Source: a virus (Duplodnaviria; Caudoviricetes). Taken from it: a DNA stretch of 64,000 nucleotides. Below the pieces are notes generated by a model. The model searched no databases. It was not told where the DNA came from and saw nothing but the letters and a program-made list of their open reading frames with translations. Numbering within the stretch: the stretch's first letter is position 1; the number at the start of each line of letters is the position of its first letter. The position numbers and the translations under genes are program-made. Location of the stretch: positions 5,878 through 69,877 of IMG/VR virus record IMGVR_UViG_3300033463_000099. One strand, given 5' to 3'. Shown here piece after piece: positions 2,512-50,975 of this stretch.

Positions 2512-2807
2512 ACGGCGGAACGGCAGAGGTGGAGAAGGAGATCAGGGAGTGCATGACGGAGGTGTTCGACTCCCTGATCAAGGTTGACAAGGCGCATGAG
2601 TTCATCTACGCCATGCAGAAGCGCGCCGAGCTGACCACGCGCGCATACGCTTCCACGCCGGTCGAGAACCGCGACATGGCTATGGGTCAGATTTCGATTT
2701 GCTACGAACTGGCGGACGGAGCGAAGTCCGCTCTGGAGGCCGCGATCTCCGAAGCCAAGGAGAAAGAGGCCGCAAAGATTCGGAAGGAGGCCGCCGCCAC
2801 GCAGTAG
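2508..2807 (+). CDS. Hypothetical head-module protein
   Basis: 99 aa, GTGA overlap with the portal stop, phage-like codon usage. Confidence 0.7.
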   Translation: MNGGTAEVEKEIRECMTEVFDSLIKVDKAHEFIYAMQKRAELTTRAYASTPVENRDMAMGQISICYELADGAKSALEAAISEAKEKEAAKIRKEAAATQ

Positions 2808-2899
2808 CGAAGCACCGCCGACGGATTCCCCGGGTGGGGCTCTGGACGGCAACACCAACTCCCGGCTGGCACCGGGCTTGATGAGGAAAGACAACGAAA

Positions 2900-3727
2900 A
2901 TGAACACAGAGACAAAGGAAACGATGGAAGCGCTGGGCGTCAAGCCCGGTGCGAAGGTAGGTGGCGGTGGAGCCGGCAACGGCGAGATCGACTACAAGGC
3001 GGAGTGCGAGCGTCTCAAGCATGAGCTTGAGGTGACGCGCATCGAAGAGGGACGCGTCAGCAAGCTTGACGCCGAACTCAAGGCAAAGGAAGCTCGGATT
3101 GCCGAACTTGAGAAGGCCGCGGCCCTCGGCTCGCTGCCGGAAGAACTCAGGGAAGGCGTGCCCGACCAGATGAAGGAGGCGGCCATCCTTCTGTCCAAGG
3201 GCATCGTCGATAAGGCGGTGCAGCAGCAGAACGAGAGAATCGCCGAACTGGAGCGTCAGCAGCGCGAAGCGCAGGAGCAGAGTCAGCATCGCCAGCAGGA
3301 GATGGTTGACGCGTTCCTCGCCAAGCTCAACAGCGACTATCCGGCATTCATGAAGGGCATAAGGGCCGGCGGCGCGTTCAACGCCGCGTGGCTTGAGTAC
3401 CAGGAGAACAACGCCGAATCCATCAACGCTGCGGTGAACAGCTGCAACGTCAAGAAGATGGAGTACCACATCAAGACCTTCTGTGAGAAGTACGATGTCG
3501 ATCCTTCGGGAGGTCGGGACCCGAACGCCACGCCCGACCCCCGCGCACTCGGTGGCGGTGCCCCGAGGCAGGAACCGGGAACGAAGAAGATTTACACGCC
3601 CGAGGAATACCAGACCTTGACCGAAAAGGCAAGGCGGCTCCGCGACGAGTACCGCTTCGACGAGTACCGGAAGCTGTCGAGGGAACTTGACGAAGCCTGG
3701 ACGGAGGGCCGCGTGAAAAGCTCATAG
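2900..3727 (+). CDS. Capsid scaffolding protein
   Basis: Charged coiled-coil protein of 275 aa immediately before the MCP, ending in a typical ...EAWTEGRV tail; RBS present. Confidence 0.7.
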   Translation: MNTETKETMEALGVKPGAKVGGGGAGNGEIDYKAECERLKHELEVTRIEEGRVSKLDAELKAKEARIAELEKAAALGSLPEELREGVPDQMKEAAILLSKGIVDKAVQQQNERIAELERQQREAQEQSQHRQQEMVDAFLAKLNSDYPAFMKGIRAGGAFNAAWLEYQENNAESINAAVNSCNVKKMEYHIKTFCEKYDVDPSGGRDPNATPDPRALGGGAPRQEPGTKKIYTPEEYQTLTEKARRLRDEYRFDEYRKLSRELDEAWTEGRVKSS

Positions 3728-29300: not shown

Positions 29301-32300
29301 TGCCGCGCAATCCACAGGGCTCTTGCCGCCGCAGGGCTGAAAGGCGGGCGGTTCCTGGAAACGTCCGCCGGCATCGGCAACCTCATCGGCACGGGCGAAT
29401 ACACGAACCCGCGCTGGACGGCGGTTGAGATCGACAAGGTTTCCGGCCAGATACTGAAAGCGCTCTACCCCAAGGCGCATGTGCAGATTTCCGGCTTCGA
29501 GGACGTGCTCATCCCCGACAACTTCATGGATGCCGTCGTGTCGAACGTGCCTTTCGGGACTTCCTACCCGTTCGACCCGAACTACAAGAAGTACGGTTTC
29601 GTGATTCACGACTTCTTCTTTGCCAAGGCCATCGACAAGCTGCACCCCGGCGGCGTGGCGGCGCTCATCACCGACCCCGGAACGCTCGACAAGAAGGACA
29701 AGAAGCTCATCCGCTACCTGTCCGAGAACGGCGGCAAGATCGTAGGCGCGGTGCGTCTGCCAAACGGCTTCTTCACCAAGAACGCCGGCACGGACGTTGC
29801 AACCGACGTGGTGTTCATCCAGAAGGTTGACGGCAAGGCCGACAACAGCGCGTTCATGCGCACGGAAGAGGTGAGGGGTTGCCCCGTGTCCGGGTGGTTC
29901 CTCGACCATCCCGAACTGTGCCTTGGAGAAATGCAGGTCGGTACGAGCCAGTACGGGCCGAAGATGCAGTACAGGGCGAAGCGCGTTTCCGACGCGGACA
30001 TGGAAGCGGCCATATCCAAGGCGGCGGAGGGGCTTGAATTCAAGACCGTGGGCGAACTCGAACAGCCTGCGCCGACGGTGCTTCCGGGCTTCCACAACGG
30101 ATTGCAGAACGGCAACGTCGGCGTTGTGTACCACGAAGGCAAGCACCGCATCGTCCGCCAGATCAACGGCGAGTTGCAGGAAGTTCCGGCAACGGAGATT
30201 CCCGCGCTGACGAAGCCGCTCCTAAAGAGGCTCGTCACGCCGGACAAGATCGTACAGGGCATCGAAAACCTGCGCAACGCGTTCCGTGCGCTTGTGGACG
30301 GCCAGCTTGCCGACTGCTCGGACGAGGAACTCAAGAAGCTACAGGACGACCTGAACCGCGAGTATTCCACCTTCACGTCGAGGTACGGCGCTCTCCACAC
30401 GCCGCTCATGGAGAAGTTCATCGGCCTGGACTACGCCGCCGCTCCGCTCCTTCTCGGCATGGAGATCGACGAGAAGATCAACGACGGCGTGGACGCCAAG
30501 GGCAAGCCGCGCATACGGCACGTCTATTCCAAGGCAGACATCTTCACCAAGCGGACGATCTTCGCCAAGCCTAGAGCGACCAAGGCCGACAGCGTTCTTG
30601 ACGGACTGCGAATCTCCCTCAACGAGACCGGCACCGTCAACACGGCGCGAATCGCGGAGCTGACCGGCAAGCCGGAAGAGGACGTGCGCAAGGAACTCAT
30701 CGAGTCCGGGCGCGTTTTCGTGAACCCCGAGACGAGCGGCGTAGAGACGCGCGACGAATACCTTTCCGGCTCCGTACGCAGGAAGCTCAAGGCGGCAAAG
30801 GCCGCTGCGGAGATCGACTCGTCCTTCAAGGTGAACGTGGAAGCGCTGGAGAAGGTGCAGCCGGAGGACGTTGCGGCGACCGACATTTCCTACCAGCTCG
30901 GCCAGAACTGGATTCCGATAGACACCTACGAGCAGTTTTTCCGCGAAGTGGTGTTCCAGGGGACATCGCCGCGCCTGCGCGTCTCGTTCGACACGCGGCG
31001 CCACCTGTGGGAAATCGACTCCAGGCACCAGGGCACGACGGAGTACGACGAGGAATCCGGACTTGCGATCGAGGATTTGCTTGAGCGCACGATGAACGGG
31101 AAATCCGTTGTCGTGAAGACCTTCGGGCCGGACGGCGAGGCTATCGTAGATCAGGCCGCCACGACCGCAACGAAGATCGTGCAGGAGAAGATCGCCCGTT
31201 CCTTCCAGTCGTGGATGACGGACGACATCGACCGCGCAAACCGCATCGAGCGCATCTACAACGACACGATGAACGACAACGTGATGCGCGACTTCGACGT
31301 GGACATACTGGAGTTCTACGGGCTGTCGAAGGAATGGGCCGACCGCGTGGGCACGAAGGGCCGCGAATACCAGAAGCGGTGCATCGCTCGCGGCACGTTC
31401 GGCGGCAACCTGCTGATCGCGCATTGCGTGGGCGCCGGCAAGACCTTTGAAATGGCGTCCATCTGCATGCAGCTCCGCCGTCTGGGGATTGCCCGCAAGC
31501 CGCTCTTCGCGGTCCCAAACCACATGCTTGCGCAGTGGAACCGCGAATTCCACGAAGCCTATCCGGGCGCGAAGGTGCTTGTGGCCACCAAGAAGGACTT
31601 GGAGAAGAGCAACCGCAGGGCGTTCCTCGCCCGCGCAGCGAATGGCGATTGGGATTGCATCATCGTGGCCCATTCGTCCTTCTCCCGCATCGCCATGTCG
31701 CCCGAACACCAGGCCGAGTACATCGAGGCGGAGATTGCCGACCTCCAAGACCTGCTCCACCAGGTGCAGAGCCAGAAGGAGCAGAACAAGATCAAGAAGC
31801 AGATTCAGTCCCGCAAGGACAAGCTGCGCGCGCTTCTCGACCCTTCGCACAAGGACGACAGCATCAAGTTCGAGGAATTGGGCTGCGACTACCTCTTCAT
31901 CGACGAGGCGCACAACTTCAAGGGGCTTGACATCCACACGCACATGTCGAACGTTCCGGGCGTGACCGGCTCCGTGTCGCAGAGGGCGCAGGACCTTGAA
32001 ATGAAGTGCCGCTACATCGCGAAGATGCACGGCGGCGACAAGGGCGTAGTGTTCGCCACGGGCACGCCGATATCCAACTCCGTGAGCGAAATGTACGTCA
32101 TGATGCGCTATCTCGCCCCGTCCAAGATGGATGAAATGGGCGTGCGCGGATTCGACGATTGGGCGCGCCAGTTCGGACAGGTGGTGAACGAGTGGAGCCC
32201 GAATCCGTCCGGCGTCGGCTTCCGCGAAAAGGCGCGGTTCTCGCAGTTTGAGAACGTGCCGGAAATGAAAAAGTTTTTCCGCTCGTTCGCAGACATCGTT

Positions 32301-35300
32301 CTGGACTCGGAGTTGCAGATCAAGCGTCCGAAGATGATTGGCGGCAAGCCGATACAGCACATCATCAAGCCGTCTGCCGCGCAGGTGGCATACGTCCAGG
32401 CGCTGAACCGGCGCATGGAGCTGATGCAGACATCGAAGGTTGACCCGCGCGTAGATAACATGCTGAAAGTCACGACCGAAGGGCGGCTTCTCGCCATCGA
32501 CCCCATGCTCATCGGCGTGAAGGATGACAGCCACACACGGGCGAACACCTGTGCAGACGAGGTGAAGCGCATCTACGACCAGTCCACGGGCAAGACCGTG
32601 ACGGGGCGGAATGGCCAGCAGATGCAGATCAACGGAACGCAGCTCATCTTCTGTGATTCTGGCGTGCCGAAGAAAAAGCAGTTCAAGCAGCTCGTCAGGA
32701 CGGCGGACGGCAACTATGAGATCGCAAGCGGCAAGGTCATACTCCGCGTTTACAAGCCAGACGCGGACGGCAACCGCTTCTACGAGATTCTACGCGGCGA
32801 TACCGGCGAGCGGATTTGGGTCCCGCACGGCTCAAAGGGCGTGACAGACCATTCGGCGGACGGCGTGGAGGATTTGGCGTCGGTTTACACTGCGCTTGAA
32901 AACATGCAGAACGCCCTTGCTGGTTTGAAAAATCCAGAAACGGCGCAGGCCCGTTCAATAGCGCGTGACATGAAGAGCTGGAGAATGGCCCCGAAGCCGA
33001 AGGGAATGCCCGTTGACATCAACGCATGGATAGACGAGAACGCCGGCCGCATAGGGTACGACCCGCGTCTTACGAATCCGTATGCCATGCGGCAGGCGGA
33101 ACTTGACGAGACGGAGGAAGCGGAGGCGGATGACGATCGCGACATGTCCGAAGAGGCGAACGGCGACGCTGAGGTTGACGACATGCTGCGCGGCAAGTTC
33201 AACATGTACGCCGAGCTGCGGAACCAGCTCATACGGCGCGGAATCCCCAAGGAAGAGATAGCCTTTATCCACGACGCCGAGACGATGAGCCAGAAACAGG
33301 CGCTCTTCGACCGGGTGAAGCGCGGCGAAATCCGCATCCTCATCGGCAACACGGCGAAGATGGGCGAGGGAACGAACGTCCAAGACCTGCTCGTTGCGAT
33401 ACACCACCTCGACATTCCGTGGAAGCCCGCGTGGATGACGCAGCGTGACGGACGCGGAATCCGCTCCGGCAACCTCAACGACGAGATCGGCATCCACACC
33501 TACATCACCGAGGGAACCTTTGACGTGTATTCGTGGGACACGGTGGGCCGCAAGGCAAAGTTCATCGAGAACGCCATGAACAGCCGCATGGACCAGCGCG
33601 TAATCGAGGACGTGGACACCACCGTAATGTCCCTGGAAGAGGGCAAGGCGGCGGCGGCCGGCGACCCTCGCATACTGGAGCGCGTCAAGCTCATCAAGGC
33701 CATAGAGAAAGCGCAGATGGAGTTTGAGACGCAGGTAAAGGCGTCCGACCGCGCGGCGATGCGCGTGCGCGTGGCCGAAAGAGACCTCATGGAAGCGAGC
33801 AAGCGCGTCTCGTCCGAGCGGGAGGCCATCGAGAAGTACACCAAGGCGAAGGGCGACAAGCCTTTCACATGGACGACCATCGAGGAAAACCCGCGCGAGC
33901 TCACCGAGAACGAAGCGATCACGCACTACATCCAGGAGCGGCTTGGATTCTTCGCGGCGAAGGGTTCCGACGCTGGAATGGTCGGCCAGCTCTTCGGGTT
34001 CGACGTGCGCTACGAGCGCGGCACCGGCACGGACCGCAGCGCGTACATGACGATAAAGGAACTCGGCATCAAGTTCCCCGTCACCGTGTTCCAGGGCGTA
34101 GGCGCGGCGTTTCCGCCGTCAGACCTCTCCAAGTTCAAGTCAGAGATCACGCGCGCCACCGGAGCAAAGGCGCTGGAGTTCCTCGACAGGTACGTTGACG
34201 ACTTCCAGAAGCGGCTTGCCATCGCGCAGAAGGCCGCAGAGAACGCGGCGGGATTCGACCGAGAGACGGCGAGCAGGGGCATCGGGGAAATGAACGTCAA
34301 CCTTGCGCGGCTGAACGACGCGCTTGGCATCAACGATACGAACGTCCGCAAAATGGCCGATGCGTTCCTCAAGGTGCAGGGATTGCCGCCGATCACGCCG
34401 GAGAAGAACGAGGGCGGGGCCGTGGCGGTCCCCGAACAGGAGGCCGCCATGTCCAGCTACGTCATGGACAACCTTTCCGACATCGCGGACGAGGCGGGCG
34501 TCTCGCTGAACGTTTACGACGTTTCCGTTGACATGTCGGAAGAGGACAGCATGAAGGTGTCCATCACGACGGACGAGGAAAGCGACAACGACGCCGCCAA
34601 GGTCCTCGGCATCATCGAGGACAGGATACTCGAATACGCCGACGCCGCCACGATCTCGGGAATGACGGTGGACTGGCTCGCTTCCGACCAGAAGAAGCGG
34701 GTGAACCTTCTCATCCAGAAGCTGCCCGGAATCACGGACATGCTGAAAGCCATGACTTCCATAAACGTGGAGGCCAAGGAAACCACGAACGCGATCGAGG
34801 ACAACTCCGGCGCGGAATTCGCAACCCCGGAACTCGACCCGACGGCAAAGCGGCTCGGCATCACAAAGCGCGACCTCGAACAGCAGGCGCGCCACCTCGG
34901 GCGTGTGCCGTGGCGTCCTCGCAAGAAGACGTGGGCGGAGGTGTATCAGCGTTCGGAAGCGGCGCTCAACCAGACGGACTTCATCGAGGAACTTGTGGAG
35001 GACGCGGCGAAGTACGCCCGTCCGCTGTCTGCGGAACACACGATTGCCGTAGGCCAGCACCTTCTGATGCTCGGCAAGCAGTACGAAGAGATACGCACCC
35101 TGCGTCTCGACGCGGAGTATTCGCTTGTGGAAGCGCAGCGGGAGGGGGCGAGCACGGACGATCTCGCCGCAATCGAAGAGCAGATAAAGGAGGTCAAGAA
35201 GGCGGAAGCCGCGATCTCCAAGCGGTATGCTACGGCATACAGGGCGATGCGCATGAGCAAGGCGGAGCAGGGCCGTGGCCTCGCCGCGAACAAGGCGCAG

Positions 35301-38264
35301 TTCTCGGAGGAATTCGACTTCCTCGGCATGAAGGAAGCCCGCCAGTCCGCTCTTGGGCGCGATCTGACGCCGGAGGAACTACGCCAGCTTCACGACATCT
35401 GCGACCGCGCGAGAGACCTTGACGAAAGCGCACGCTCCGAACTGTGGGCCGCCGTAAACGCGCAGGCGGAACGGACGATCAAGGACCTGTTCATGAAGGA
35501 TTCCGTCAAGCGGTCGGGCGAATCGCGGCGGAAGAAGCTCGTTGACTACCGCAAGAAGTATCTCGACGCGATGGCGCATCTGAAAGTCTATCGTGACACG
35601 GTGGGCGGCTCGCTCATCGGAATCACCGGCGACGAGTACGGCACCTGGAACAAGCCGCTGTTCGACATACTCCTTTGGCACCGCTTCCAGAATCCCGACA
35701 TAACGGCGGCGCAAGCCCTTCAAGCCGTCACGGAGGACGTGAACACCTACATCGCGGCGGACGATACGACCGTGGCGCGGATTCTCACGGGATTCGAGCG
35801 CAGCTGGGACATCAACCGCCACGACGAGGTGCTAAAGGGCGGGCGCGACCTGCGTTCGCAGATTCTTACGCAGTTGCAGATCGACAGCCTGCTCAACAAG
35901 CGGATGCCCGGAAAGACGGGGCCGATTCCCGGCGAACCTTCGCAGGAGCTTCGCGACATCCGCCACACGCGCGATGTCCTCAAGAACGAGCTGGAGGAAG
36001 AGACTAACGACCCGCGCAAGCTCCAGGGCCGCATGAAGCGGTGGATGAAGTGGTACGACAACCGCATCAACGACCTGCGGCGCGAGATCGCCGCCGGCGA
36101 ACGCCTGCCGCAGACGCGGCGCACGCTCCAGTGGACGGAGGAAATGAAGCAGAAGCGCGCCGAGTACGAGGAACTTGTGGCCGAGCGCGACCGCGTATGC
36201 GGCAAGAGCGGACTTTCCGAGGAAGAGCGGATAAAGCGGTACGAGGCCACCCTTGAACGGACGCTTCGCCGCGCGGTGGACCGTCTGCAAGCGGCGCGGA
36301 ACGACGATTTCCGCAAGGCGGAACGCGCCACGCCCGTGACGAGCGAGTACATCGAGGCGTTGAAACAGGCGATTGCCGACACGAACGCGGAATGGCGCCA
36401 GGAGAAGCGCGACCGTCTCATGTTCGGGCGCACGCAGGCCGAGATCAACCGTCTCAACGAGAACCGCATGAAGACGCGCGAGCGGCGCATAGCCTACTGG
36501 CAGGCGCTGACGGCACCGACCGCCGACCGCTCCGTTGTGAAGAAGCCGCAGATTCCCATGTCCGCCGAACAGCAGGCGCGGTACGACGAACTCGGCCAGC
36601 AGATGAAGAAGCTTCGCCGTCAGGTCATGGACATGCGGGCGCACGACGAACTCATGAAGAAGCCGTGGGCAATCCGGAACGGAATAGAATACTTCCGCTT
36701 CGTGAACGGCCTTACGCGCGGGTTCCTCGCCACCGCCGACCATTCTGCGGTCCTGCGGCAGATGGCGCAACTGTCCATCGGGCATCCCGTCCTTGCCGCG
36801 CGCGTGTTCAAGAACACCATCGGGACGGCGTTCTCGGACGAAAAGGCGCTTGCGATAAACGCCGAACTCATGTCCGACCCGAGAATCAAGGAGGCCGTGG
36901 ACAAGGGCTGGCTGAACTGGCGGAACATCGAGGCGGAGGGGAACTCCGGCGACGTGGAAATGTTCTCGTCCATCCATTCGGCTGCGATCACCGTAGGACG
37001 CAACGCGGACGGTACGGAAAAGCGGTTTGCGCTGGACGACATAAAGGGTGTCGGCTCAATCCTTCGCGGCTCCGAGCGCATCTACGCCACCTACATCAAC
37101 GCGCTGTCGGCGGAGATATACCTTGCGCTCACGAACGCGGACGGCTTCACGGCTCGCCTCATGTTCGGCCAGAACGGTCTTACGGACTACACCAAGAAGG
37201 AGATCGCGGCCAGAATCAACATGGCGAACGGCTCCGCGCAGCTGGATGACGGCAAGAAGAAGCAGCTGATGAACTCGCTCACCGGAATCTTCTGGGCGCC
37301 GAAACTCGCCCTGTCCAGGTTGCAGCTCGCAACCGGATGGGACATGATACATCCTCTGCTCGACGGCTCTGTGGACATAAAGACGCGCCTGCGGACGGCA
37401 GGGTTCAACGCCATGGAACACGCGCGGGCGAAACTTGCGATGGTCGCGCTCGGCACGCTCATGCTCATGCTGGCCGGCGACGATGACGACAAGGAGAAGA
37501 TGCGCCGCGCGTCTTGGTTCAACAAGTTCTTGCAGGTGATAAAGCCGCGCGTCGGCAACACCACGCTTGACTTCTCCGGCGGCGAGGTCGGTTGGTATCA
37601 GCTCATGGCGAAGTGGGCAACGCTCCAGAAGGAAACCGGCACGGGCAAGACGCAGTATCTGGCGGCCAAGGCCGGACACAAGCAGTCCTTCGGCGCCGAC
37701 ATCATGAACGAGACGTTCCGTTTCGCGCAGGGCAAGTTCAATCCGCTGCTCTCCAACGCGATTGCGCTGTGGACGGGCAAGGATTACGTCGGCCAGCCGT
37801 TCGGCATAGGCGAAATGGCGATCAACACGTTCGTGCCGCTCGGCGCGGCTGACACGGCCAAGGCGTTCGCGGAGAATGGGCTTGGGCGCGGTCTGCTCCT
37901 GGCTCCGTTCATCACGTTCGGCGCGGGCGGCAACACCTACCCGCTGAAACGGTACGAGATCGCGGCCAACCAGTTCACGGAGGCGGCAAAGGCATACGAC
38001 ACCGTGCGGGACGATCGCGAACTTGACGCGGACGAAAAGACAAAGTACATCGAGGAACTTGAACAGGACTTCCCGGAGCTGGCGCAGCGCGGCCGCATCG
38101 AAGGGAAGATTCAGACGGTCAAGTATTTCGAGTCGCAGATCAGGAAGTTGCAGAAGGCCGGCGCGTCCGTTCCTCCGTCTCTCTCGGACGGCTTGGAACG
38201 TGCGAAAACCGAAGCTCTGGACCTCATCCGCGAGGCTCGCAAGCCTGTCGATAAAGGTAGATAA
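23301..38264 (+). CDS. Giant polyvalent DarB-like virion protein (metallopeptidase motif, ParB-like, two MTases, SNF2 helicase, LPD38-like C-terminus)
   Basis: 4,987 aa. HEIIGH at 25542-25559; TGRHR ParB-like motif at 26331-26345; DIGAG...NVLNV MTase at about 27600-28166; ETSAGIG...NVPF adenine MTase (NVPF 29544-29555); AHCVGAGKT at about 31419 and DEAH at 31902-31913; P...L.TGKDYVGQP LPD38-like tail. Confidence 0.85.
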   Translation: MASSLWGPGLTEDENETGKLAAKAMTAAAATDALDHPELSTASEEGKPKDTGADEIADLDAGVKLTDGGEVPVIDDIPEVEIPEDAEEEKMGVGEHAKKTIESELGKKPSELFQWSPGAKKLMSALGIDEDTASAVLEHTTDPARQIQQIQAFGEEKNLERLRTGDFDDKDMDEIAQNAGLRGDLEEINRITSSSMDPINEKRKFLAMTAEDELTKRTKIKQEAAADLERKPQTTWGKIASGTLENSGYVAAFMYGSSIAGGLGIGMTAAEGSGALAKIGVGAVNTMIGSAPASAVGAGARYQRLSKKDYQLDAEGQLQAIDNNYGELRSMVQGGVGGFVENTVVEGLTDTAIELGCLGLSKIPGAQAFIVKPLQRIGNAAVRKLMGNKAGRAMLQIGKAYNGISQFTHFHSQPVEMLEEDLQPIFDEVFGLDKKRGEYKGFGAEAKDYWNKTLTLANQADIFYGLVGTCLLQAGVGGAGAKWARSNQGGTTAKEAMSVLTDYANVPKEKLATLSDEEKIALCDLYRTMSANPDKMVEFAEQIGAKSGAIMEDVVNRAGARMNRKMEAAGMSPSTFNIPMKEVDGKLVPDFQFTVGTDMTTGKTVQGRMVTDAESGVIIRDNGSGVGTERAFTVIDPNTKQEVDVPNLMLARKTASLFKNTAAMTQAERAAKTEYIHNVWQQKYGNTNVELYDTVDEAIAASAKHGVDVTAQAGFTPDRPAWHLKDGTVVFVRDNINSPYEVDTLFQHEIIGHNEEAMQDEFMANLDSKEIRKAQETLGLTDEQMADPVVQREVFANVIQSRRHNPSIMQRLKHFINEKRRAAGDKTGISDADLEVLAQKWEQAAMGDAGNMKIGDSLERGGMEFRDADGKVVGIEDADIELLDEEQQEVNDETGTGTDEAPAQPEQGTQRPAEPEVAGTEEGGAQGEEAGEVVKKPVPERTVIEKMTEEAPVQELDTAEVFNDDSRIPNFKEGANPETGEVEPLQGEPYDLVSNPIVVMEFKDGKKVVVTGRHRLALYKRAGREKIAARVIREEDGWTVKDAKMIDAIGNIIDEKGSVKDYVKYYEDARPSREAAEAGGFLARPKGKLAFGIYEGATEDTRSAIDFEGSGADGMISVEQAGIIAEAAPRNGHPRNAALQRILVKKALDGLRGKKLGILARSLAEDVKKQKEPASAGGEMQLDLFSSPEDQALLAMEDKRADYRIKRAQVYGRIAEDLRIAMSKGGRLDINDEYARELGITDPKDKKQLAAARDKAVERENYWENAVRLDDADKAAMDAEIGASSKKAEEKTTAIADRLKAIREGKPKPTPKTPKNATVSAPAEKPTTTPPKATETAQGGESAESATSTSNPRQKQVDAISSVLGIPIKVIGKDGKVEADSTAAAEAAISGKKPKTETRTTKKTVVLKDAKRAEKAKGQADDLMSLFATPELDARQKQTALSGKTSRNQNPSGNEFAKKWGIFRPNTRNVDIGAGAFDKATEFLAEQGVENIPFDPVNRDSETNRRAVESVRAKPADTATVHNVLNVIDNDAVMEGIVNQAARAIKPKGTAIFTIYEGDKSGNGRATRDGYQRNARAASYVPSLKKYFGQVETHGNVILARQPKDVGPAFWAFDSTFDVGAYFASPQFDPEKFQQRVGAMAKLVTTLNEEGYNDFKSLAAYLGENFPQEKFNAAKPYLRGVWNALAEQMNLEEVSKKDADAIYSDIEKSYNTPTSEETDNESGLEQPGRTDDGQHPASDGKSPEGGRSTAQGEGTGENSSEAGEDGHGTAVHDGGDGSRQGHPVERPEVPVGALPAGGTENVGNGASGSSTVASNDGRDAQAGGRGAQGSESGVQLGAGLPADVGTGGSGTVAAPVREALQKEAPNAVKNENYIITDADERAIENGAVRDKVRQNVDAIRIVRKLAEDGRDATPEEKSKLARYVGWGGLKPIFNNAYRNAYEREQSEGTLPPQTWAAIRKTPLGEEGYDLYKQLRELLSNDEMQSAEQSTLNAFFTPIRLCRAIHRALAAAGLKGGRFLETSAGIGNLIGTGEYTNPRWTAVEIDKVSGQILKALYPKAHVQISGFEDVLIPDNFMDAVVSNVPFGTSYPFDPNYKKYGFVIHDFFFAKAIDKLHPGGVAALITDPGTLDKKDKKLIRYLSENGGKIVGAVRLPNGFFTKNAGTDVATDVVFIQKVDGKADNSAFMRTEEVRGCPVSGWFLDHPELCLGEMQVGTSQYGPKMQYRAKRVSDADMEAAISKAAEGLEFKTVGELEQPAPTVLPGFHNGLQNGNVGVVYHEGKHRIVRQINGELQEVPATEIPALTKPLLKRLVTPDKIVQGIENLRNAFRALVDGQLADCSDEELKKLQDDLNREYSTFTSRYGALHTPLMEKFIGLDYAAAPLLLGMEIDEKINDGVDAKGKPRIRHVYSKADIFTKRTIFAKPRATKADSVLDGLRISLNETGTVNTARIAELTGKPEEDVRKELIESGRVFVNPETSGVETRDEYLSGSVRRKLKAAKAAAEIDSSFKVNVEALEKVQPEDVAATDISYQLGQNWIPIDTYEQFFREVVFQGTSPRLRVSFDTRRHLWEIDSRHQGTTEYDEESGLAIEDLLERTMNGKSVVVKTFGPDGEAIVDQAATTATKIVQEKIARSFQSWMTDDIDRANRIERIYNDTMNDNVMRDFDVDILEFYGLSKEWADRVGTKGREYQKRCIARGTFGGNLLIAHCVGAGKTFEMASICMQLRRLGIARKPLFAVPNHMLAQWNREFHEAYPGAKVLVATKKDLEKSNRRAFLARAANGDWDCIIVAHSSFSRIAMSPEHQAEYIEAEIADLQDLLHQVQSQKEQNKIKKQIQSRKDKLRALLDPSHKDDSIKFEELGCDYLFIDEAHNFKGLDIHTHMSNVPGVTGSVSQRAQDLEMKCRYIAKMHGGDKGVVFATGTPISNSVSEMYVMMRYLAPSKMDEMGVRGFDDWARQFGQVVNEWSPNPSGVGFREKARFSQFENVPEMKKFFRSFADIVLDSELQIKRPKMIGGKPIQHIIKPSAAQVAYVQALNRRMELMQTSKVDPRVDNMLKVTTEGRLLAIDPMLIGVKDDSHTRANTCADEVKRIYDQSTGKTVTGRNGQQMQINGTQLIFCDSGVPKKKQFKQLVRTADGNYEIASGKVILRVYKPDADGNRFYEILRGDTGERIWVPHGSKGVTDHSADGVEDLASVYTALENMQNALAGLKNPETAQARSIARDMKSWRMAPKPKGMPVDINAWIDENAGRIGYDPRLTNPYAMRQAELDETEEAEADDDRDMSEEANGDAEVDDMLRGKFNMYAELRNQLIRRGIPKEEIAFIHDAETMSQKQALFDRVKRGEIRILIGNTAKMGEGTNVQDLLVAIHHLDIPWKPAWMTQRDGRGIRSGNLNDEIGIHTYITEGTFDVYSWDTVGRKAKFIENAMNSRMDQRVIEDVDTTVMSLEEGKAAAAGDPRILERVKLIKAIEKAQMEFETQVKASDRAAMRVRVAERDLMEASKRVSSEREAIEKYTKAKGDKPFTWTTIEENPRELTENEAITHYIQERLGFFAAKGSDAGMVGQLFGFDVRYERGTGTDRSAYMTIKELGIKFPVTVFQGVGAAFPPSDLSKFKSEITRATGAKALEFLDRYVDDFQKRLAIAQKAAENAAGFDRETASRGIGEMNVNLARLNDALGINDTNVRKMADAFLKVQGLPPITPEKNEGGAVAVPEQEAAMSSYVMDNLSDIADEAGVSLNVYDVSVDMSEEDSMKVSITTDEESDNDAAKVLGIIEDRILEYADAATISGMTVDWLASDQKKRVNLLIQKLPGITDMLKAMTSINVEAKETTNAIEDNSGAEFATPELDPTAKRLGITKRDLEQQARHLGRVPWRPRKKTWAEVYQRSEAALNQTDFIEELVEDAAKYARPLSAEHTIAVGQHLLMLGKQYEEIRTLRLDAEYSLVEAQREGASTDDLAAIEEQIKEVKKAEAAISKRYATAYRAMRMSKAEQGRGLAANKAQFSEEFDFLGMKEARQSALGRDLTPEELRQLHDICDRARDLDESARSELWAAVNAQAERTIKDLFMKDSVKRSGESRRKKLVDYRKKYLDAMAHLKVYRDTVGGSLIGITGDEYGTWNKPLFDILLWHRFQNPDITAAQALQAVTEDVNTYIAADDTTVARILTGFERSWDINRHDEVLKGGRDLRSQILTQLQIDSLLNKRMPGKTGPIPGEPSQELRDIRHTRDVLKNELEEETNDPRKLQGRMKRWMKWYDNRINDLRREIAAGERLPQTRRTLQWTEEMKQKRAEYEELVAERDRVCGKSGLSEEERIKRYEATLERTLRRAVDRLQAARNDDFRKAERATPVTSEYIEALKQAIADTNAEWRQEKRDRLMFGRTQAEINRLNENRMKTRERRIAYWQALTAPTADRSVVKKPQIPMSAEQQARYDELGQQMKKLRRQVMDMRAHDELMKKPWAIRNGIEYFRFVNGLTRGFLATADHSAVLRQMAQLSIGHPVLAARVFKNTIGTAFSDEKALAINAELMSDPRIKEAVDKGWLNWRNIEAEGNSGDVEMFSSIHSAAITVGRNADGTEKRFALDDIKGVGSILRGSERIYATYINALSAEIYLALTNADGFTARLMFGQNGLTDYTKKEIAARINMANGSAQLDDGKKKQLMNSLTGIFWAPKLALSRLQLATGWDMIHPLLDGSVDIKTRLRTAGFNAMEHARAKLAMVALGTLMLMLAGDDDDKEKMRRASWFNKFLQVIKPRVGNTTLDFSGGEVGWYQLMAKWATLQKETGTGKTQYLAAKAGHKQSFGADIMNETFRFAQGKFNPLLSNAIALWTGKDYVGQPFGIGEMAINTFVPLGAADTAKAFAENGLGRGLLLAPFITFGAGGNTYPLKRYEIAANQFTEAAKAYDTVRDDRELDADEKTKYIEELEQDFPELAQRGRIEGKIQTVKYFESQIRKLQKAGASVPPSLSDGLERAKTEALDLIREARKPVDKGR

Positions 38265-38598: not shown

Positions 38599-39819
38599 AT
38601 GAGTTATCTACAGAAGAAGGAAGTCGAGGCGACAATCAAGCGCCGCGAGCATACCGTCAAGGGCAAGGTGTACGTCACCTTTGAGGCGTATTTCGGCACA
38701 GACCCTTTCAGCAAGAAGCCTGTGCGGATGTCGCGCGGGACGGAAGAGGAACTGAAAAAGGCGATCAAGGATTTCTTCCTTCGCCACCAGTCCGGCGGCG
38801 ATGCGGCCGTGCGCCTGACTGCGGTTCAAGCCCTGGATGCGAAAAACGCCCTTGACGAGCTTACGGCGGCGGGAGAGGACATTTCCCTTACCGAAGCCGT
38901 CCGCGCGTATCTGGGCGGTTCTGTGCGCATATCCGGCAACGCCAGCGGGATAACGATAGGCGACGCGTGGCAAGAGTTCTACAACGGCAAGCCCGACGGC
39001 GACGACAAGCGCAAGCACAGGTATTCTTCCGGGAAGTTCGTGCAGGAGTACGGCGCCGACCGGAAACTTGCGCTCGTCACGGCCAAGGAGGTGGCGGACT
39101 ACCTTGAGGCCAACTACGGCGCGCTCAAGCCAAAGACCTACAACTCGCACCTGTTGAGCATCAAGACCTTCTTCAACTGGTGCGCCAAGGGCAAGCAGAA
39201 GTACATACCGTTCAGCCCGATAAAGGAAGTCGAATTCAAGCCGGAGCCGTGGGAGGAACCGGAATACATGAAGCCGGCCGACGTGGAACAACTGTTCCGG
39301 CTGCTGGAGTCGGTGAAGGACAAGCACCCCGAATATCTCGCGCAGGCGATCGTAGGATTCTTCTGCGGCACACGCGCCGTCGAGATACGCCGCATGGCCA
39401 TGATCGAGGGCGCGGCCAAGATTCACCTGGACGACGAGACAATCCGGATTGCGATGGGCAAGGGATTCCAGCGGGGCAAGATGCCGCGCTCGTTCCAGAT
39501 AGAGCCGACGGCGATGGCGTGGATTAAATCGTTCGACTTCATGGACGCCTTGAAGAAGGTCAACAAGAAGACGATCGGGAAAATCTACAAGCTCGCCCGG
39601 AAGCACAAGATACCCGTGTTCCAGAACTGCGTAAGGCACACGTTCATCACCTACCATGTCGCGGCCTACGGCGACCCCGCCAAGACGCAAGCGATGGTCG
39701 GCACGTCCGCGCGGTATCGCGCCATGAACTACTGCGGCTTGGCGAGCAAGGCGGACGGCGAAGCCTACTTCAAGATTTGGCCGTCGTGCTTCACGGTCGA
39801 AGAAAAGGCCGCGTCGTAA
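38599..39819 (+). CDS. int: Tyrosine integrase
   Basis: 406 aa; GFFCGTRAVEI (catalytic Arg), NCVRHTF (HxxR box with N), terminal ..MNY Tyr; N-terminal arm-binding and SAM-like regions. Confidence 0.85.
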   Translation: MSYLQKKEVEATIKRREHTVKGKVYVTFEAYFGTDPFSKKPVRMSRGTEEELKKAIKDFFLRHQSGGDAAVRLTAVQALDAKNALDELTAAGEDISLTEAVRAYLGGSVRISGNASGITIGDAWQEFYNGKPDGDDKRKHRYSSGKFVQEYGADRKLALVTAKEVADYLEANYGALKPKTYNSHLLSIKTFFNWCAKGKQKYIPFSPIKEVEFKPEPWEEPEYMKPADVEQLFRLLESVKDKHPEYLAQAIVGFFCGTRAVEIRRMAMIEGAAKIHLDDETIRIAMGKGFQRGKMPRSFQIEPTAMAWIKSFDFMDALKKVNKKTIGKIYKLARKHKIPVFQNCVRHTFITYHVAAYGDPAKTQAMVGTSARYRAMNYCGLASKADGEAYFKIWPSCFTVEEKAAS

Positions 39820-39860
39820 AGGCGCGGCAGGTGGACTAATTCTGGACTTCACGGATTAAA

Positions 39861-40622
39861 TTAGTCCAGCAGCTTCTTTATGGCGGCGTCCCTCTTCTTG
39901 TAGAAGTTGGACGCTTTCAGCATTTGCCGTCTCGCCGCCTCAACGCGCCTCAACTCATGGTAGATTTCCGGGCGCGTGAACTTCGGGTCAACCATCAGCG
40001 TGTGGGTGGATGTGATCACTCTCTTCAACTGCGACACCACCCGCTGCGTATTGTCGCCCCATTCCCGCACCTGGTAGTTTATGGCTATCTTGAAGGACAT
40101 CGCGTCCCGATAGACGAAGAAGTCAGGAACGTCAAACGGCGAATCGAACTCTTCCAAGTCCTCAAACCATATAAGGCGGACATTCTTCAACCTCGTATAG
40201 TAGAGATAGGGGTCGGTCATTCGACGCAGGGAAAGCATGCTCTCGATGTAGATGGAGTTGCCGGTCTTTGTGCTGACGAACGCCAACTTTGGCGAATGCT
40301 GTATCTCCCATTCGTAAGGGCGCGGCGAGATTGTCCTAATCCATTGTTGGATTCCGAATCTCAAACAATAGTCGCAATGCCGTGGTGTGGCGGCGACTGC
40401 GAGAACATTGCCGTCACCGTGCAGAGTGTGGAGAATTGAGGCCACGGAGAGGACAGACGAGCGGCCAGCGCAACGCGAGCCCGTCACCATCGTAAGGGAC
40501 GGCGATTTGCCGAGAAGGATTTTCCGCAGAATGGTAAGTTGCTTTGCGGTGAGGCGTCTTTCAAGCGGAATGTCGGTGTTGGACGACAGCGAGGTGTAAT
40601 CTTTGAGGGTTGGTTTTTTCAT
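39861..40622 (-). CDS. Degenerate terminase-large-subunit ATPase domain (SPP1/PBSX type), no nuclease domain
   Basis: GSRCAGRSS (Walker A-like, K to R), WEIQHSPKL...TGNSIY, IWFEDLEEF (Walker B-like, EE to ED). Colinear with the recalled SPP1/PBSX TerL N-domain; stops at 253 aa. Confidence 0.65.
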   Translation of the reverse strand: MKKPTLKDYTSLSSNTDIPLERRLTAKQLTILRKILLGKSPSLTMVTGSRCAGRSSVLSVASILHTLHGDGNVLAVAATPRHCDYCLRFGIQQWIRTISPRPYEWEIQHSPKLAFVSTKTGNSIYIESMLSLRRMTDPYLYYTRLKNVRLIWFEDLEEFDSPFDVPDFFVYRDAMSFKIAINYQVREWGDNTQRVVSQLKRVITSTHTLMVDPKFTRPEIYHELRRVEAARRQMLKASNFYKKRDAAIKKLLD

Positions 40623-40627
40623 GTGGC

Positions 40628-41065
40628 TTACTGCCTTTCTCCTTTGGTGAGTTTTTCAATGGTGCGTCTGACGGCTGGCATTCCGCCCTTGAGATAGATC
40701 GCGCCGAGACTTTCGGCAACGCAAGCGAGAAGCGGACTCTTCATCCGCAGTAAGAGCTTCATCAATTCGTAGTGGTGTTGCTTCGCTTGCGGCGATTCGT
40801 GCTGCTCAAGGAATTTCGACACGGCGATCAAGGTATCTGCCGCACCGTCAATCACCGCTTCGACGATCTCCGATGCGTGTAGTCCTTCCCACGCCTTGTA
40901 TTCCGCCACCATGAGCTGTTCGCCAAGGGCAACAACATCGTCGGCGTTGCATATCGTGGTCGTGCCCAACGGATTTTGGTAGCCAATGGGCTTGTCGGGG
41001 TCGAAGTCGATAACCTCTATGGGCTTGAATCGTGCGATCGTGACGGGGAATCTGTGGTTGCTCAT
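40628..41065 (-). CDS. Hypothetical protein
   Basis: 145 aa, ATGA-coupled, part of the leftward operon. Confidence 0.65.
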   Translation of the reverse strand: MSNHRFPVTIARFKPIEVIDFDPDKPIGYQNPLGTTTICNADDVVALGEQLMVAEYKAWEGLHASEIVEAVIDGAADTLIAVSKFLEQHESPQAKQHHYELMKLLLRMKSPLLACVAESLGAIYLKGGMPAVRRTIEKLTKGERQ

Positions 41066-41569: not shown

Positions 41570-41778
41570 TCCTCTTCTTCCTCTATCGGAATGGGCTTCG
41601 GCTCGCGTTTCTTCCAGCCGAACTTCTTGCGGTTGTACTCGGCTGAATTCTCGCTGTTCATGATCTTGCGTCCGTATTCGCAGGACGGCGCATCCGGCGG
41701 ACGCATGGTTGCAAGGTGTACGCACCATCCGCGCTCGAACTTCGGGCAGACGGCGCACGGTCTAGGCTTTCTAGGCAT
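41566..41778 (-). CDS. Small Cys-rich protein
   Basis: CAVCP...WC...SCEYG; 70 aa. Confidence 0.6.
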   Translation of the reverse strand: MPRKPRPCAVCPKFERGWCVHLATMRPPDAPSCEYGRKIMNSENSAEYNRKKFGWKKREPKPIPIEEEEE

Positions 41779-42094
41779 TGTCTTCTCCTTCCTCGATCAC
41801 GATAAGGTCATGCTGGAGCGCAACGAGCAGTTCACGCTTCGCGCCCTTCGACTTGTTCCAGCCTTTGAGAAGGTAGATCGCGTCGAGGTGGGGAATGACT
41901 GCGCGCTCGCATTCCATGACGGCATCAAGAAGCTTTCCTTCGGGGTTGCCGCCAAACACAAAATTGAAGTCTGTCGGGTTTACGACAAGCCATCCTTCTT
42001 TGTAGAGTTTCTTTTCTGCGGCGTCGAACGCGTCGAAGTTGTTGTTGGGCAGTCCGGCCATCTGTCCGGCGATGTAGATTGTTTTGCGGTTCAT
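41771..42094 (-). CDS. DUF4406 family protein (nucleoside deoxyribosyltransferase-like fold)
   Basis: IYIAGQMAG...NF.AF..A...L...G..V.NP and DAIYLLKGWNKSKGAKRE are family signatures. Confidence 0.8.
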   Translation of the reverse strand: MNRKTIYIAGQMAGLPNNNFDAFDAAEKKLYKEGWLVVNPTDFNFVFGGNPEGKLLDAVMECERAVIPHLDAIYLLKGWNKSKGAKRELLVALQHDLIVIEEGEDNA

Positions 42095-42102
42095 CGTCTC
42101 TC

Positions 42103-42396
42103 CTATGGTGCGAGTGTCAATGCCATCGGAAGCACGCCATTCGCATCCGCTGGCGGCTCCGTCTCGGTCGGGTGGCTGAATCCAGGCGCATCGACGCGCC
42201 CGGAGATTTTCGACAGGCAATCAAGGCGTTCTGCCGTAATCCATTCCTCCTTCAACTCACCCTCCGTCACCCATTCAAGCAGATATTCGATCTGCCCAGA
42301 CGCGCGGATTGTGATGGCGGTGCATACCGTCTTCCACTTGGGGTCAGAGAAGAGCAGAACGATGTCGCCTATCGAGATCTTGGTTTCGATTTTCAT
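42103..42396 (-). CDS. Hypothetical small beta-barrel-like protein
   Basis: MKIETKISIGDIVLL...; 97 aa. Confidence 0.6.
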   Translation of the reverse strand: MKIETKISIGDIVLLFSDPKWKTVCTAITIRASGQIEYLLEWVTEGELKEEWITAERLDCLSKISGRVDAPGFSHPTETEPPADANGVLPMALTLAP

Positions 42397-43200: not shown

Positions 43201-43686
43201 CTACTCGACGATTTCCCAATCCTCGCACAGCATGTCGGTCTGCGAGGCAAGCCAGCCGGTCAAGACTTCGCCTGTGGCCGTCTTCATGCGGATGGAGCCG
43301 GTGAACGTCACCGTGCCGCCATTCGCCTCGCTGATGGCTTTCAGATGCGGGTCGGTGATGTTCGGGCAGTTCGTGATCGTGCTTCCGGGCATAACCCAGA
43401 TGTACATGCCCTTGCCGTTCCAGCCCTTGCGAGCAACCTTCTTGCCCTGCTTCATGGCTTCGATGGCCTGCCCGAAGGTCATGCCGTCAATGGGGCGACC
43501 GGCGGCCTCGAACTGCGCCTTGGGGCACCAGCTCTCGTAGCCGTCGGGATAGACCACATGATAGCCCTCGTCGAAGGGGTTCTCGTTCGCAGGCATTTCC
43601 CAGCCGCGATAGTTGTTGTACTCGCCGCGCGTCATGGGCGTAGCCTTGGCAACGTGGCAACGGATGTATTGTTTGTATTCTAGCAT
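43201..43686 (-). CDS. DUF2829 / Tad2-like anti-defence sponge with an N-terminal extra domain
   Basis: MTFGQAIEAMKQGKKVARKGWNGKGMYI...GW.ASQTDMLCEDWEIV is the DUF2829 signature; N-terminal GY.V.YPDGY.SW.PK..FE domain. Confidence 0.8.
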   Translation of the reverse strand: MLEYKQYIRCHVAKATPMTRGEYNNYRGWEMPANENPFDEGYHVVYPDGYESWCPKAQFEAAGRPIDGMTFGQAIEAMKQGKKVARKGWNGKGMYIWVMPGSTITNCPNITDPHLKAISEANGGTVTFTGSIRMKTATGEVLTGWLASQTDMLCEDWEIVE

Positions 43687-43732
43687 TGTTTTACCTTTCT
43701 TGTTGTCCCGCCCACACCATGCGGACGGAAAT

Positions 43733-45217
43733 TCATTTTTCAAATGTCGATTTCACCATAGCCTTTGCCGTCTGGACAGGGACGGAGTTTCCGATCTGCT
43801 TCACCTGTTCCGCACGGTTGCCCATGAGGACGAAATCCTCCGGGAACGAATGCGCCGCCGCCAGCTCCGACGGCTTCAACATCCTTATGCGGACATCGAG
43901 CAGGCGCCCGTCCTCCAGCAGCGCAAAGCAACCCTGCATGTTGTCGTATGTCGTGATCGTCTGCATCGGCTCCCTGTCGCTGTGGATGTGGCCGCTGTCG
44001 TGTCCTCCTGGACGGCTCATGTCTAGGATTACCGCATCGACCTTGCGGATAGCCCCAGCGGTGGAAATCGTCGGCATCGGTTGAGTGTCCGGGCGAAGTT
44101 CCGCGCCTCCCTGCTGTCCGAGGACAAAGGTATTTATGACGCTGAAACGGTCGTGCGAGGTTTGCGTACCGAGCGGCCTCTTTAGGTCTGTCGGCTTGCC
44201 GCCGTTGCAATGGTCTATGATGATAGGCTGGCAAAGCGCGTGGTGATTCGTGTGCGCCACGATGGACGATATAGGCCGTTCAATGCTCTCCGCGAAGCAT
44301 CCGCGATTCGCGCGGACGAGGAACGGGCGGCAAAGAAGATGGTGGCCGCCTCCCGAAACCACGGTGGAAAGCGGGGAATCTACCGATTCAGCCGTTCCGT
44401 TCCTGTTCAGCTTGACGATAAACGGCTTCAAGTCGATGTTGCAATACTTCTGCAATCCGACGATCACGCGGCGCATGGTGTTTTCCGCCAGCGGCGTCTT
44501 GCGGTCGAAGATGCTCTTGCCGATGTCCGTGTAGTCCAGGCATTCAGAGACGGTGCGCCACGGTTTCAGCTTGCGGTTCCAAAGGTCTTGCTCGGGGTGT
44601 TCCGCGTGGGTGGGCTCCGGCCAGCGAATGCGTCCGCATCCGCGCTTGACTGCTTTTAGGAAAAACCGCTTGCGCGTCGTGGCGTCGCCATAATCGGCGC
44701 AGTTCACCACGCGCCAGTCAACGATGTAGTCACGCGCGCGCAATCCGTCAACCCAATTCAAGAAACACTTGCCCCTAAGCCGCTTTATGGGCTTCTGGGT
44801 TTCGGGGTCGAGCGGTCCCCATTGCATGAACTCGGGGACGTTCTCGATGATGATGTGGCGAATTTTCCGCGTGCGGTCAATCCATTCGTGGACGTGGTTA
44901 GGCTGCATCCGCAGTTGGTCGGAAAGCGGACGGTCGCCCTTCGCCCTGGAGAAGTGCGTACAGGACGGTGACATCCATAGCAAGTCGATTTCGCCGTCCG
45001 GCACAAGCTTCTCCGGGTTGGCGATCGACATGTCCATGCAGTAGGCTTTAATGTTTGGGTTGTTGTACGAGATAGTGTTGATTGCCGGCATCCAATGGTT
45101 GATGGCAATTTCCTCGTATGGGATTCCAAGCTCGGTGAAAGCCTCATGGATTCCCATTGTGGCGCCGCCGGCTCCGCAGAATCCGTCAACAACCTTCTTC
45201 ACTCGCTGACGTGCCAT
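43733..45217 (-). CDS. DNA cytosine-5 methyltransferase (phage type)
   Basis: DGFCGAGG (motif I), SPSCTHFS (catalytic PC-like), ENVPEF, RKRFF, QIGNSVP (motif X). Confidence 0.9.
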   Translation of the reverse strand: MARQRVKKVVDGFCGAGGATMGIHEAFTELGIPYEEIAINHWMPAINTISYNNPNIKAYCMDMSIANPEKLVPDGEIDLLWMSPSCTHFSRAKGDRPLSDQLRMQPNHVHEWIDRTRKIRHIIIENVPEFMQWGPLDPETQKPIKRLRGKCFLNWVDGLRARDYIVDWRVVNCADYGDATTRKRFFLKAVKRGCGRIRWPEPTHAEHPEQDLWNRKLKPWRTVSECLDYTDIGKSIFDRKTPLAENTMRRVIVGLQKYCNIDLKPFIVKLNRNGTAESVDSPLSTVVSGGGHHLLCRPFLVRANRGCFAESIERPISSIVAHTNHHALCQPIIIDHCNGGKPTDLKRPLGTQTSHDRFSVINTFVLGQQGGAELRPDTQPMPTISTAGAIRKVDAVILDMSRPGGHDSGHIHSDREPMQTITTYDNMQGCFALLEDGRLLDVRIRMLKPSELAAAHSFPEDFVLMGNRAEQVKQIGNSVPVQTAKAMVKSTFEK

Positions 45218-45347
45218 CTGACACTTCACCTTTCTCGTCTTCGCCGTTCATCTTGCGTAGCTCGTCCCGAATCTCCTTGAGCAGATTGTATTGGTCAATC
45301 ATGCCCAAGAAGATCAAGATGGAAACAAAAGCAACGAGGCCAGTCAT
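45186..45347 (-). CDS. Small single-TM protein (53 aa; missed by the ORF track)
   Basis: MTGLVAFVSILIFLGMIDQYNLL...; GAGG RBS. Confidence 0.5.
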   Translation of the reverse strand: MTGLVAFVSILIFLGMIDQYNLLKEIRDELRKMNGEDEKGEVSDGTSASEEGC

Positions 45348-50546: not shown

Positions 50547-50975
50547 TTAGTTTTCTCCGTTTTCGGGTAGTTCAGTAATGGAAATCAGAATGCCGTGCTT
50601 CTCGTCCTCGTCGTGCCATATCTTCGACACGACTTCACGGCAGACGAGCGCATCGTCACGCCAGTAGCCGCAAGCCGTCATCACGTCCTTCAACATCTTC
50701 TGTAGGTTGTCGGTGTCGGGCTTGGTGGTCTTGAATACGCCCTTGACGCCCTTCGGACGGCGGAAGGACCACTCGGCGCACAGCATGATCGGGCAATCCC
50801 ACGGCTCGGGCGGACGGAACTTGGCGAGCTTCACCGTCAGAAGCGCACGGGCGTTTTTCAGCTCCGGCGGGTCGTAGTAGAACGGCTTGCCTTTCACCAC
50901 GCGCACCTTCTTCTCCTGGTGCGTGACGGTCGGTGGCTGCGGCTCGATGTTCAAGAAGAATGCAAGGCGCTTCAC
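50547..50975 (-). CDS. rusA: RusA-family Holliday junction resolvase
   Basis: TKPDTDNLQKMLKDVMT..GYWRDDALV; GTG start overlapping the primase stop. Confidence 0.85.
   Translation of the reverse strand: MKRLAFFLNIEPQPPTVTHQEKKVRVVKGKPFYYDPPELKNARALLTVKLAKFRPPEPWDCPIMLCAEWSFRRPKGVKGVFKTTKPDTDNLQKMLKDVMTACGYWRDDALVCREVVSKIWHDEDEKHGILISITELPENGEN

Follow-up and report, generated by a model that had tools for sequence, protein, structure and literature searches.

A stand-alone homologue of the Terminase_3 ATPase domain with replaced catalytic residues is encoded next to the integrase gene of a temperate phage

Terminase ATPase domains are a main molecular pattern by which the bacterial immune receptors Avs1-3 and Upx detect tailed phages; Avs2 and Avs3 read the terminase ATPase domain, and Avs2 uses a bridging ATP. 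On its own, the ATPase domain of real terminases is enough to activate Avs2 and Upx (PMC13601566, PMC11564622), and stand-alone look-alikes of the large terminase subunit (TerL) ATPase domain from other phages bind the terminase pocket of Avs2 (PMC13601566). T4 vs.8 (NP_049732), an uncharacterised protein that is homologous to the T4 terminase ATPase domain and has intact Walker motifs, is toxic together with EcAvs2, which it activates, and has been modelled in the EcAvs2 terminase pocket (Evans et al. 2026, PMC13601566). Similarly, Ksap1 and Ksap2 have a terminase-like core and trigger KpAvs2 (PMC11564622). What such look-alikes do for the phage is an open question according to the authors, who suggested an anti-defence role (PMC13601566). 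Here, we analysed a 64,000-bp window (bases 5878-69877 of the 69,877-bp virus record IMGVR_UViG_3300033463_000099; positions are those of the window unless stated otherwise) and, within it, ORF253, an open reading frame (ORF) for a protein of 253 amino acids (aa). An initial annotation, made from the DNA letters alone, had described ORF253 as a stand-alone, catalytically degenerate terminase ATPase domain and as a possible terminase decoy or packaging-interference factor.

ORF253 is homologous to the ATPase domain at the N-terminus of large terminases of the SPP1/PBSX type (Pfam Terminase_3, PF04466). ORF253 itself had no terminase or defence match in Pfam, PHROGs, NCBIfam or PADLOC and lies below any Pfam terminase threshold; the sole signal from Pfam, PHROGs and NCBIfam was a faint P-loop signal (AAA_16, E 0.081), and a PDB sequence search with a 6-sequence profile returned only noise (E ~1). 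In an exhaustive phmmer search of 1.84 billion representative sequences, six relatives of ORF253 were detected. One of them, the protein P0010 (265 aa), is similar to ORF253 at E 5e-11, has the corresponding motifs (GSRCSGRS and LED), and matches Pfam Terminase_3 at E 3e-9 with 37.1 bits, the curated cut-off being 23.2 bits. Moreover, hhalign aligned 157 columns of an 11-sequence family profile to SPP1 G2P (Prob 89.9, E 1.7e-6), with the three motifs quoted in the initial annotation in identical order and register, i.e. GSRCAGRS on GGRGSAKS, the W-x-x-x-x-SP...GNSI strand (within WEIQHSPKL...TGNSIY, residues 105-125) on its counterpart, and WFEDLEEF (within IWFEDLEEF, residues 151-159) on WIEELAEF. 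When 5.8 billion proteins were searched with the family profile, more short relatives were retrieved and then, at E 6.5e-4 to 3.3e-3, full-length TerLs of 413-426 aa with both Terminase_3 and Terminase_3C. Longer or fused forms of the family (465-2000 aa) were not found, which is weak evidence.

The AlphaFold2 model of ORF253 (pLDDT 88, pTM 0.85) consists of one alpha/beta ASCE domain with the fold of solved TerL ATPase domains. Large terminases predominated when this model was compared by Foldseek with the PDB and with BFVD, a set of predicted viral structures, and the closest language-model neighbours of ORF253 were Terminase_6N/Terminase_3 N-domain clusters. In the structure comparison, the NAT10 helicase module reached 16.0 and generic DEAD-box domains ~14. 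An SF2 helicase or NAT10-TmcA module was rejected, as these have two RecA-like domains or an acetyltransferase fusion and ORF253 has neither. A search for terminase or P-loop matches by profile and by structure had been set beforehand as the test of the identification, and such matches were found. In total, we conclude that the identification is borne out because transitive homology, profile comparison, profile search and structure are four independent routes to it.

ORF253 shares with Terminase_3 TerL the ASCE fold, the G-x-R-x-x-G P-loop, the W..SP...GN.I strand and a W-x-E-acidic Walker B motif. It differs in the absence of the nuclease domain and in two residues of the active site, all three of which the initial annotation had pointed out and the alignments with SPP1 G2P and other TerLs bear out. 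The TerL nuclease columns are empty for ORF253, and the protein ends at residue 253 without Terminase_3C. Arg54 aligns to the Walker A Lys of SPP1 G2P (GGRGSAKS) and of the TerLs P0017-19 (GGRGSTKS). The Walker B strand LIWFED aligns to MWIEEL of SPP1 G2P and to W[YF]EE of TerLs, which places Asp155 at the position of the catalytic Glu (WFED versus W-x-E-E). ORF253 also differs from Terminase_3 TerL in a family-specific N-terminal extension (MK..T.K.Y..L) and in a new, conserved and basic C-terminal helix.

The replaced residues are stable features of the family. E154 and D155 are invariant in 11 of the 11 rows of the family alignment A2, and four more members also have ED; Arg54 is retained through the synonymous codons CGC, CGA and CGT; and G48, R50 and S55 do not vary in the family alignment even with TerLs included. 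In T4 gp17 and other ASCE ATPases, changes of the Walker A Lys to Arg and of the catalytic Glu to Asp are standard conservative substitutions that preserve the fold and usually nucleotide binding and abolish turnover. In T4 gp17, K166 and E256 reportedly accept no substitution, conservative ones included, according to mutagenesis by the Rao laboratory. Judged by these residues, ORF253 would bind nucleotide and hydrolyse it poorly or not at all. Conservation within the family is highest at the P-loop glycines, at Arg50 of the P-loop and at the acidic pair, which suggests that the nucleotide pocket is still in use.

Three forms of the domain can be told apart. Full-length Terminase_3 enzymes have Walker A GGRGSTKS and Walker B W[YF]EE, and continue through TY..VP..WLG..F..EA...Y.HEYLGE into the nuclease domain. 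A short subfamily (P0011 and P0014-16; 252-264 aa) keeps the Lys in GGRGSLKS, has the Glu-to-Asp change (AED), and ends just past YLGE. The ORF253 subfamily, with nine full-length members, has G[SP]R..GR[ST], i.e. Lys to Arg, together with E-D, and its C-terminal part is a different helix. In a maximum-likelihood tree, full TerLs (K/EE), short K/ED proteins and short R/ED proteins are on fully supported branches; this tree is unrooted and gives by itself no order of events. The common truncation point, the E-D pair and the shared N-terminal extension argue that the stand-alone form arose once and that Lys was replaced by Arg afterwards. The sister subfamily P0011 and P0014-P0016 ends at the ATPase/nuclease junction (..YLGEEPKKPAKV..). 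It is encoded on short contigs (P0011 at L008:204-995), which have no other gene in common with the phage in the window.

From 5.8 billion sequences, the family profile and the searches described above yielded 15 homologues, counted as clusters at 90% identity, with 20-98% identity. Across this range, the full-length homologues have a constant length of 249-265 aa and no frameshifts. Pairwise ratios of non-synonymous to synonymous divergence (dN/dS, Nei-Gojobori) among five homologues with 54-98% identity were 0.22-0.35 at dS 0.39-1.48. These ratios together with the 15 homologues show that ORF253 is not a chance reading frame, and ORF253 is a live gene under purifying selection; frameshifted remnants with dN/dS near 1, a possibility raised at the outset, are contradicted. 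The most constrained parts of ORF253 are the P-loop and the C-terminal helix. Non-synonymous divergence in the gene is lowest at residues 221-240 (pN 0.068 versus pS 0.42), and members that are 54-98% identical all have the helix stretch EAARRQMLKASNFYKK unchanged. The synonymous divergence of 0.42 in this part rules out that an overlapping DNA or RNA element is the cause, and thus the constraint acts on the protein. In the structure model, the last 35 residues form a single long helix (helix 218-252 predicted), as the initial annotation had expected of the segment after the motifs. The basic helix, standing where TerL has its linker and nuclease domain, would be a newly acquired interaction surface.

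The family is new, with no member in cultured phages, IMG/VR or GTDB representatives: tblastn with P0001 (= ORF253) and P0010 against 50,697 GenBank phages gave no match, and pattern scans of IMG/VR and GTDB genomes revealed no relatives. Terminase_3 had no match in three metagenome-assembled genomes (MAGs) that carry related prophage genes, these genomes being incomplete. One metagenome cluster, P0009 (184 aa), is near P0007; its first ~45 residues are unrelated and the P-loop region is missing. P0009 may be a copy that has decayed or recombined, or it may be a chimera of the assembly.

Among the described look-alikes, vs.8 resembles ORF253 in being a single terminase-ATPase-like domain of ~220-250 aa whose gene lies among early or accessory genes and away from a complete terL, that is confined to one phage lineage and that has no known function. 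[quoted passage not shown] The A2 profile aligned to vs.8 only in the surroundings of the P-loop (hhalign, Prob 12.7, 37 columns); because the similarity is limited to the P-loop, the two families are independent inventions. Ksap1 and Ksap2 share with ORF253 that they are lineage-restricted phage proteins with a terminase-ATPase-like beta-sheet core, and both are predicted in the Avs2 terminase pocket. Packaging ATPases of the phi29 gp16 type also lack a nuclease, yet each is the only, catalytically active motor of its phage, whereas ORF253 accompanies a complete TerL as an additional copy, and its substitutions are crippling.

The own TerL of the phage (record 4515-6083; its final 206 nt, ending in the PDK..TH..DGLQY motif, are window positions 1-206) is a complete protein of 522 aa with a canonical Walker A motif (GPVGSGKS). 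It matches phrog_2 (E 5e-14); with annotated large terminases, it shares 34% identity across 91% of its length. No sequence similarity between this TerL and ORF253 was detectable, and ORF253 is derived from a terminase lineage other than that of the phage's own TerL, as had been supposed. terL immediately precedes the portal gene; ORF253 is ~40 kb away from terS/terL/portal, beside int in the early accessory region and outside the packaging module. Directly 5' of terL, at the place expected for the small terminase, are two overlapping ORFs (229 and 189 aa; L004:3453-4530), for which no Pfam or PHROG match was found.

The phage is temperate. The plus-strand half of its genome contains the portal gene (phrog_332), tail genes and, at the end of the structural block, a single ORF for a polyvalent protein of 4,987 aa that contains methyltransferase and SNF2-helicase modules (Pfam Methyltransf_23 at residues ~1463-1575, ResIII/SNF2/Helicase_C at ~2687-3390; the homologue in the contig L006 has LPD38). 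This protein is DarB-like and is probably injected. The minus-strand half contains SbcC-like, Sak4-like, helicase, primase and ParB-like genes, and then the C5 DNA methyltransferase, Tad2-like and DUF4406 genes, small ORFs and lastly ORF253 (Table 1). The primase is 74-86% identical to sequences of Kiritimatiellia and Lentisphaeraceae MAGs (L013-L015), and the window DNA occurs in sequencing runs that are mostly of bovine-gut or gut metagenomes; thus, the host is likely a PVC-group gut bacterium. The sequencing runs with window DNA are DNA runs, no RNA run being listed among them.

Table 1 Features of ORF253 and its surroundings in the window
Feature	Position	Strand	Remarks
4,987-aa polyvalent protein	23301-38264	+	Single ORF
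int, tyrosine integrase	38599-39819	+	phrog_1, E 2.6e-16; convergent with ORF253
Inverted repeat	39827-39873		15-nt arms 39827-39841 and 39859-39873, 17-nt loop; spans ORF253 stop, between ORF253 and int
ORF253	39861-40622	-	Stand-alone Terminase_3-type TerL ATPase-domain homologue; 253 aa + stop
C-terminal basic helix	39864-39971	-	Residues 218-253; where TerL runs on into nuclease domain
Walker B strand LIWFED	40158-40175	-	Residues 150-155; E154-D155 where TerL has E-E
Walker A / P-loop GSRCAGRS	40458-40481	-	Residues 48-55; Arg54 instead of canonical Lys
ORF145	40628-41065	-	145 aa
DUF4406/nucleoside 2-deoxyribosyltransferase-like	41771-42220	-	E 2.8e-19
Tad2-like protein	43201-43743	-	PF11195, E 2.6e-25; phrog_872
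C5 DNA methyltransferase	43733-45229	-	498 aa; phrog_116, E 2.9e-64
Primase	50972-53269		

The local layout of ORF253 agreed with the initial annotation except in one respect. The gene starts with ATG, ends with TAA and has 253 uninterrupted codons, its stop codon is 41 bp from that of the convergent int, and the purine-rich stretch AAGGAGAAAGG, which resembles a Shine-Dalgarno sequence, is present 5' of the ATG, where a ribosome-binding site had been claimed. The inverted repeat between the two genes is probably a two-way transcription stop (RNA fold of 39800-39880: -22.7 kcal/mol, z -2.55). However, the description of the position as moron-like was not supported. No sigma-70-like promoter was found near ORF253 on the minus strand, and the preceding ORF145 stops 5 nt short of the ORF253 ATG; therefore, ORF253 is read as the last cistron of a long leftward operon, and it is operon-coupled and not a self-contained moron.

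The Tad2-like, DUF4406 and C5 DNA methyltransferase genes form a cluster of likely counter-defence genes toward the int-proximal end of the early operon. In relatives, the same place additionally has a gene for a radical-SAM protein (phrog_9298), or else genes for methyltransferases of the N6/N4 and Dam-like types. Homologues near integrases, which the initial annotation had suggested looking for, were found in contigs of 31 kb and 61 kb. In the 31-kb contig, which encodes a 71% identical protein, the order is Tad2-like gene, DUF4406 gene, small ORFs, ORF252, a 143-aa gene, the radical-SAM gene and convergent int. In the 61-kb contig L006, the homologue is 31% identical (BLASTP; 34% by phmmer), overlaps the ends of two methyltransferase genes, of which the upstream one is of the N6/N4 type and the downstream one is Dam-like, and again has a convergent int and the gene for a giant protein downstream. 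Thus, the int-proximal, accessory setting of anti-restriction and anti-defence genes is conserved and the immediate neighbours vary. In the relative L014, a Tad2-like gene is present, and a homologue of ORF253 was not found in the part examined. From its place beside int, ORF253 was also considered as an excisionase, for which the P-loop fold lends no support.

In three close relatives, ORF145 adjoins the ORF253 homologue, in one case on the opposite side: it is upstream also in L009 (98% identical) and directly downstream in L001 (62% identical), so that adjacency is kept and the order flipped. ORF145 is not adjacent to more distant homologues. Since the adjacency is confined to the three close relatives and the 141-aa gene downstream in L012 is not related to ORF145, the idea that ORF145 is an obligatory partner was rejected. 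ORF145 has no family match in Pfam or PHROGs, and its predicted fold (pLDDT 51) is mainly helical at low confidence. Co-folding of ORF253 with ORF145 gave a score of 0.00, which bears neither way on binding. That the two ORFs together form a split TerL was ruled out, because the phage's own TerL is complete and ORF145 is without a family match and, at low confidence, mainly helical.

Packaging or cutting of DNA by ORF253 is excluded because ORF253 has no nuclease domain, is not in the packaging module and has key residues replaced, and because a complete TerL is present. With little or no hydrolysis, ORF253 would act by binding and not by packaging or cutting DNA. Tentatively, and with the chances somewhat against it, we propose that ORF253 presents a nucleotide-bound-like terminase ATPase domain that is non-catalytic and works by binding a partner. 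ORF253 would be a TerL ATPase domain locked in an ATP-bound-like shape, it would mimic the terminase ATPase domain toward something that normally recognises one, and its C-terminal helix would provide a new contact or blocking surface.

For the identity of the partner, two candidates can be considered, each unlikely taken singly. Because of the counter-defence neighbourhood, the likeliest target is a host immune sensor of terminases of the Avs1-3 or Upx type; here, the extra C-terminal helix could block tetramerisation of the receptor. The other candidate, which we rate as equally unlikely or slightly more so, consists of the packaging partners of competing SPP1-type phages or of satellites. 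As ORF253 comes from a foreign terminase lineage, it should spare the phage's own motor, and subunits with Lys-to-Arg and Glu-to-Asp changes are classic ring poisons; both points speak for this target. In its most specific form, the proposal is that ORF253 is an early-expressed, hydrolysis-dead mimic that fills the terminase pocket of Avs1-3 or Upx in an ATP-bound-like state and whose helix prevents productive assembly of the receptor; in this form, it is more doubtful than the sensor as such.

Several points weigh against a mimic that acts by binding. A TerL look-alike made early would more naturally trigger sensors of the Avs2 or Upx type than block them, because lone ATPase domains activate Avs2 and Upx and because vs.8, Ksap1 and Ksap2 are activators; of the initial interpretation, the homology stands, the moron description is not supported, and the idea of a decoy is somewhat weakened by the literature. 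The packaging target would require that an isolated N-domain join a motor or bind TerS, which such a domain is not known to do. We know of no terminase sensor in the presumed hosts (Kiritimatiellia/Lentisphaerae), where none was searched for. Expression from the prophage, which superinfection exclusion needs, is without support, as no promoter of its own was found for ORF253; this also counts against the packaging target. Moreover, the family is very rare, and the presumed loss of hydrolysis is read from the identities of the residues.

Of the alternatives to such a mimic, a repurposed P-loop switch survives best, and we regard it as possible but rather unlikely. In this case, ORF253 would be a nucleotide-dependent DNA-binding or adaptor module with an early function unrelated to terminase recognition, for example in int-proximal DNA transactions or alongside the DNA-modification enzymes that are encoded nearby. 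No part of ORF253 is more conserved than the nucleotide site, the new C-terminal helix is basic, TerL ATPase domains in the ATP state are known to grip DNA, and in L006 the gene overlaps the stop and the start of the two flanking methyltransferase genes. However, the flanks differ (methyltransferases in L006, ORF145 or radical SAM in L001 and L009, int in the window), leaving no constant enzymatic partner, and no DNA-binding domain was detected with Pfam, PHROGs or NCBIfam.

An active ATPase with an unusual Arg/Asp catalytic set, i.e. a small motor or helicase-like enzyme, is improbable. That the P-loop, its arginine and the acidic pair are strictly conserved is what a working site would show as well, and the sister subfamily keeps the Lys; on the other hand, both substitutions are classic ones for abolishing hydrolysis in TerL and other ASCE ATPases, E-D is fixed in all members, and the protein has one RecA-like domain without a second domain or nuclease. 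That ORF253 is a functionless remnant of a foreign terL gained by recombination, to which its origin in a TerL lineage unlike the phage's own and the P0009 cluster without the P-loop region might point, is very improbable and largely refuted by the dN/dS of 0.22-0.35 at dS up to 1.5 and by the constant length without frameshifts over 20-98% identity, as well as by the conserved N-terminus, active-site motifs and C-terminal helix and by the position kept in the phage with the 31% identical homologue. The rest of the probability we leave to an explanation of another kind of which we have not thought.

The ORF253 family provides an independent, cleanly traceable series from the full TerL to a truncated protein with E-D and to a truncated protein with both K-to-R and E-D. 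As the pocket is kept, its chemistry is conservatively disabled and its neighbours are counter-defence genes, ORF253 is a good test object for an immune decoy, a weapon against the packaging of rivals, or another function. If an early mimic indeed fills the pocket of terminase sensors, ORF253 would be a natural inhibitor of terminase-sensing immunity that works by mimicry of its trigger, and it would hint at the purpose of vs.8-like proteins. If none of these functions applies, ORF253 would still be a clear case of a viral enzyme domain that has been turned into a pseudo-enzyme under selection.

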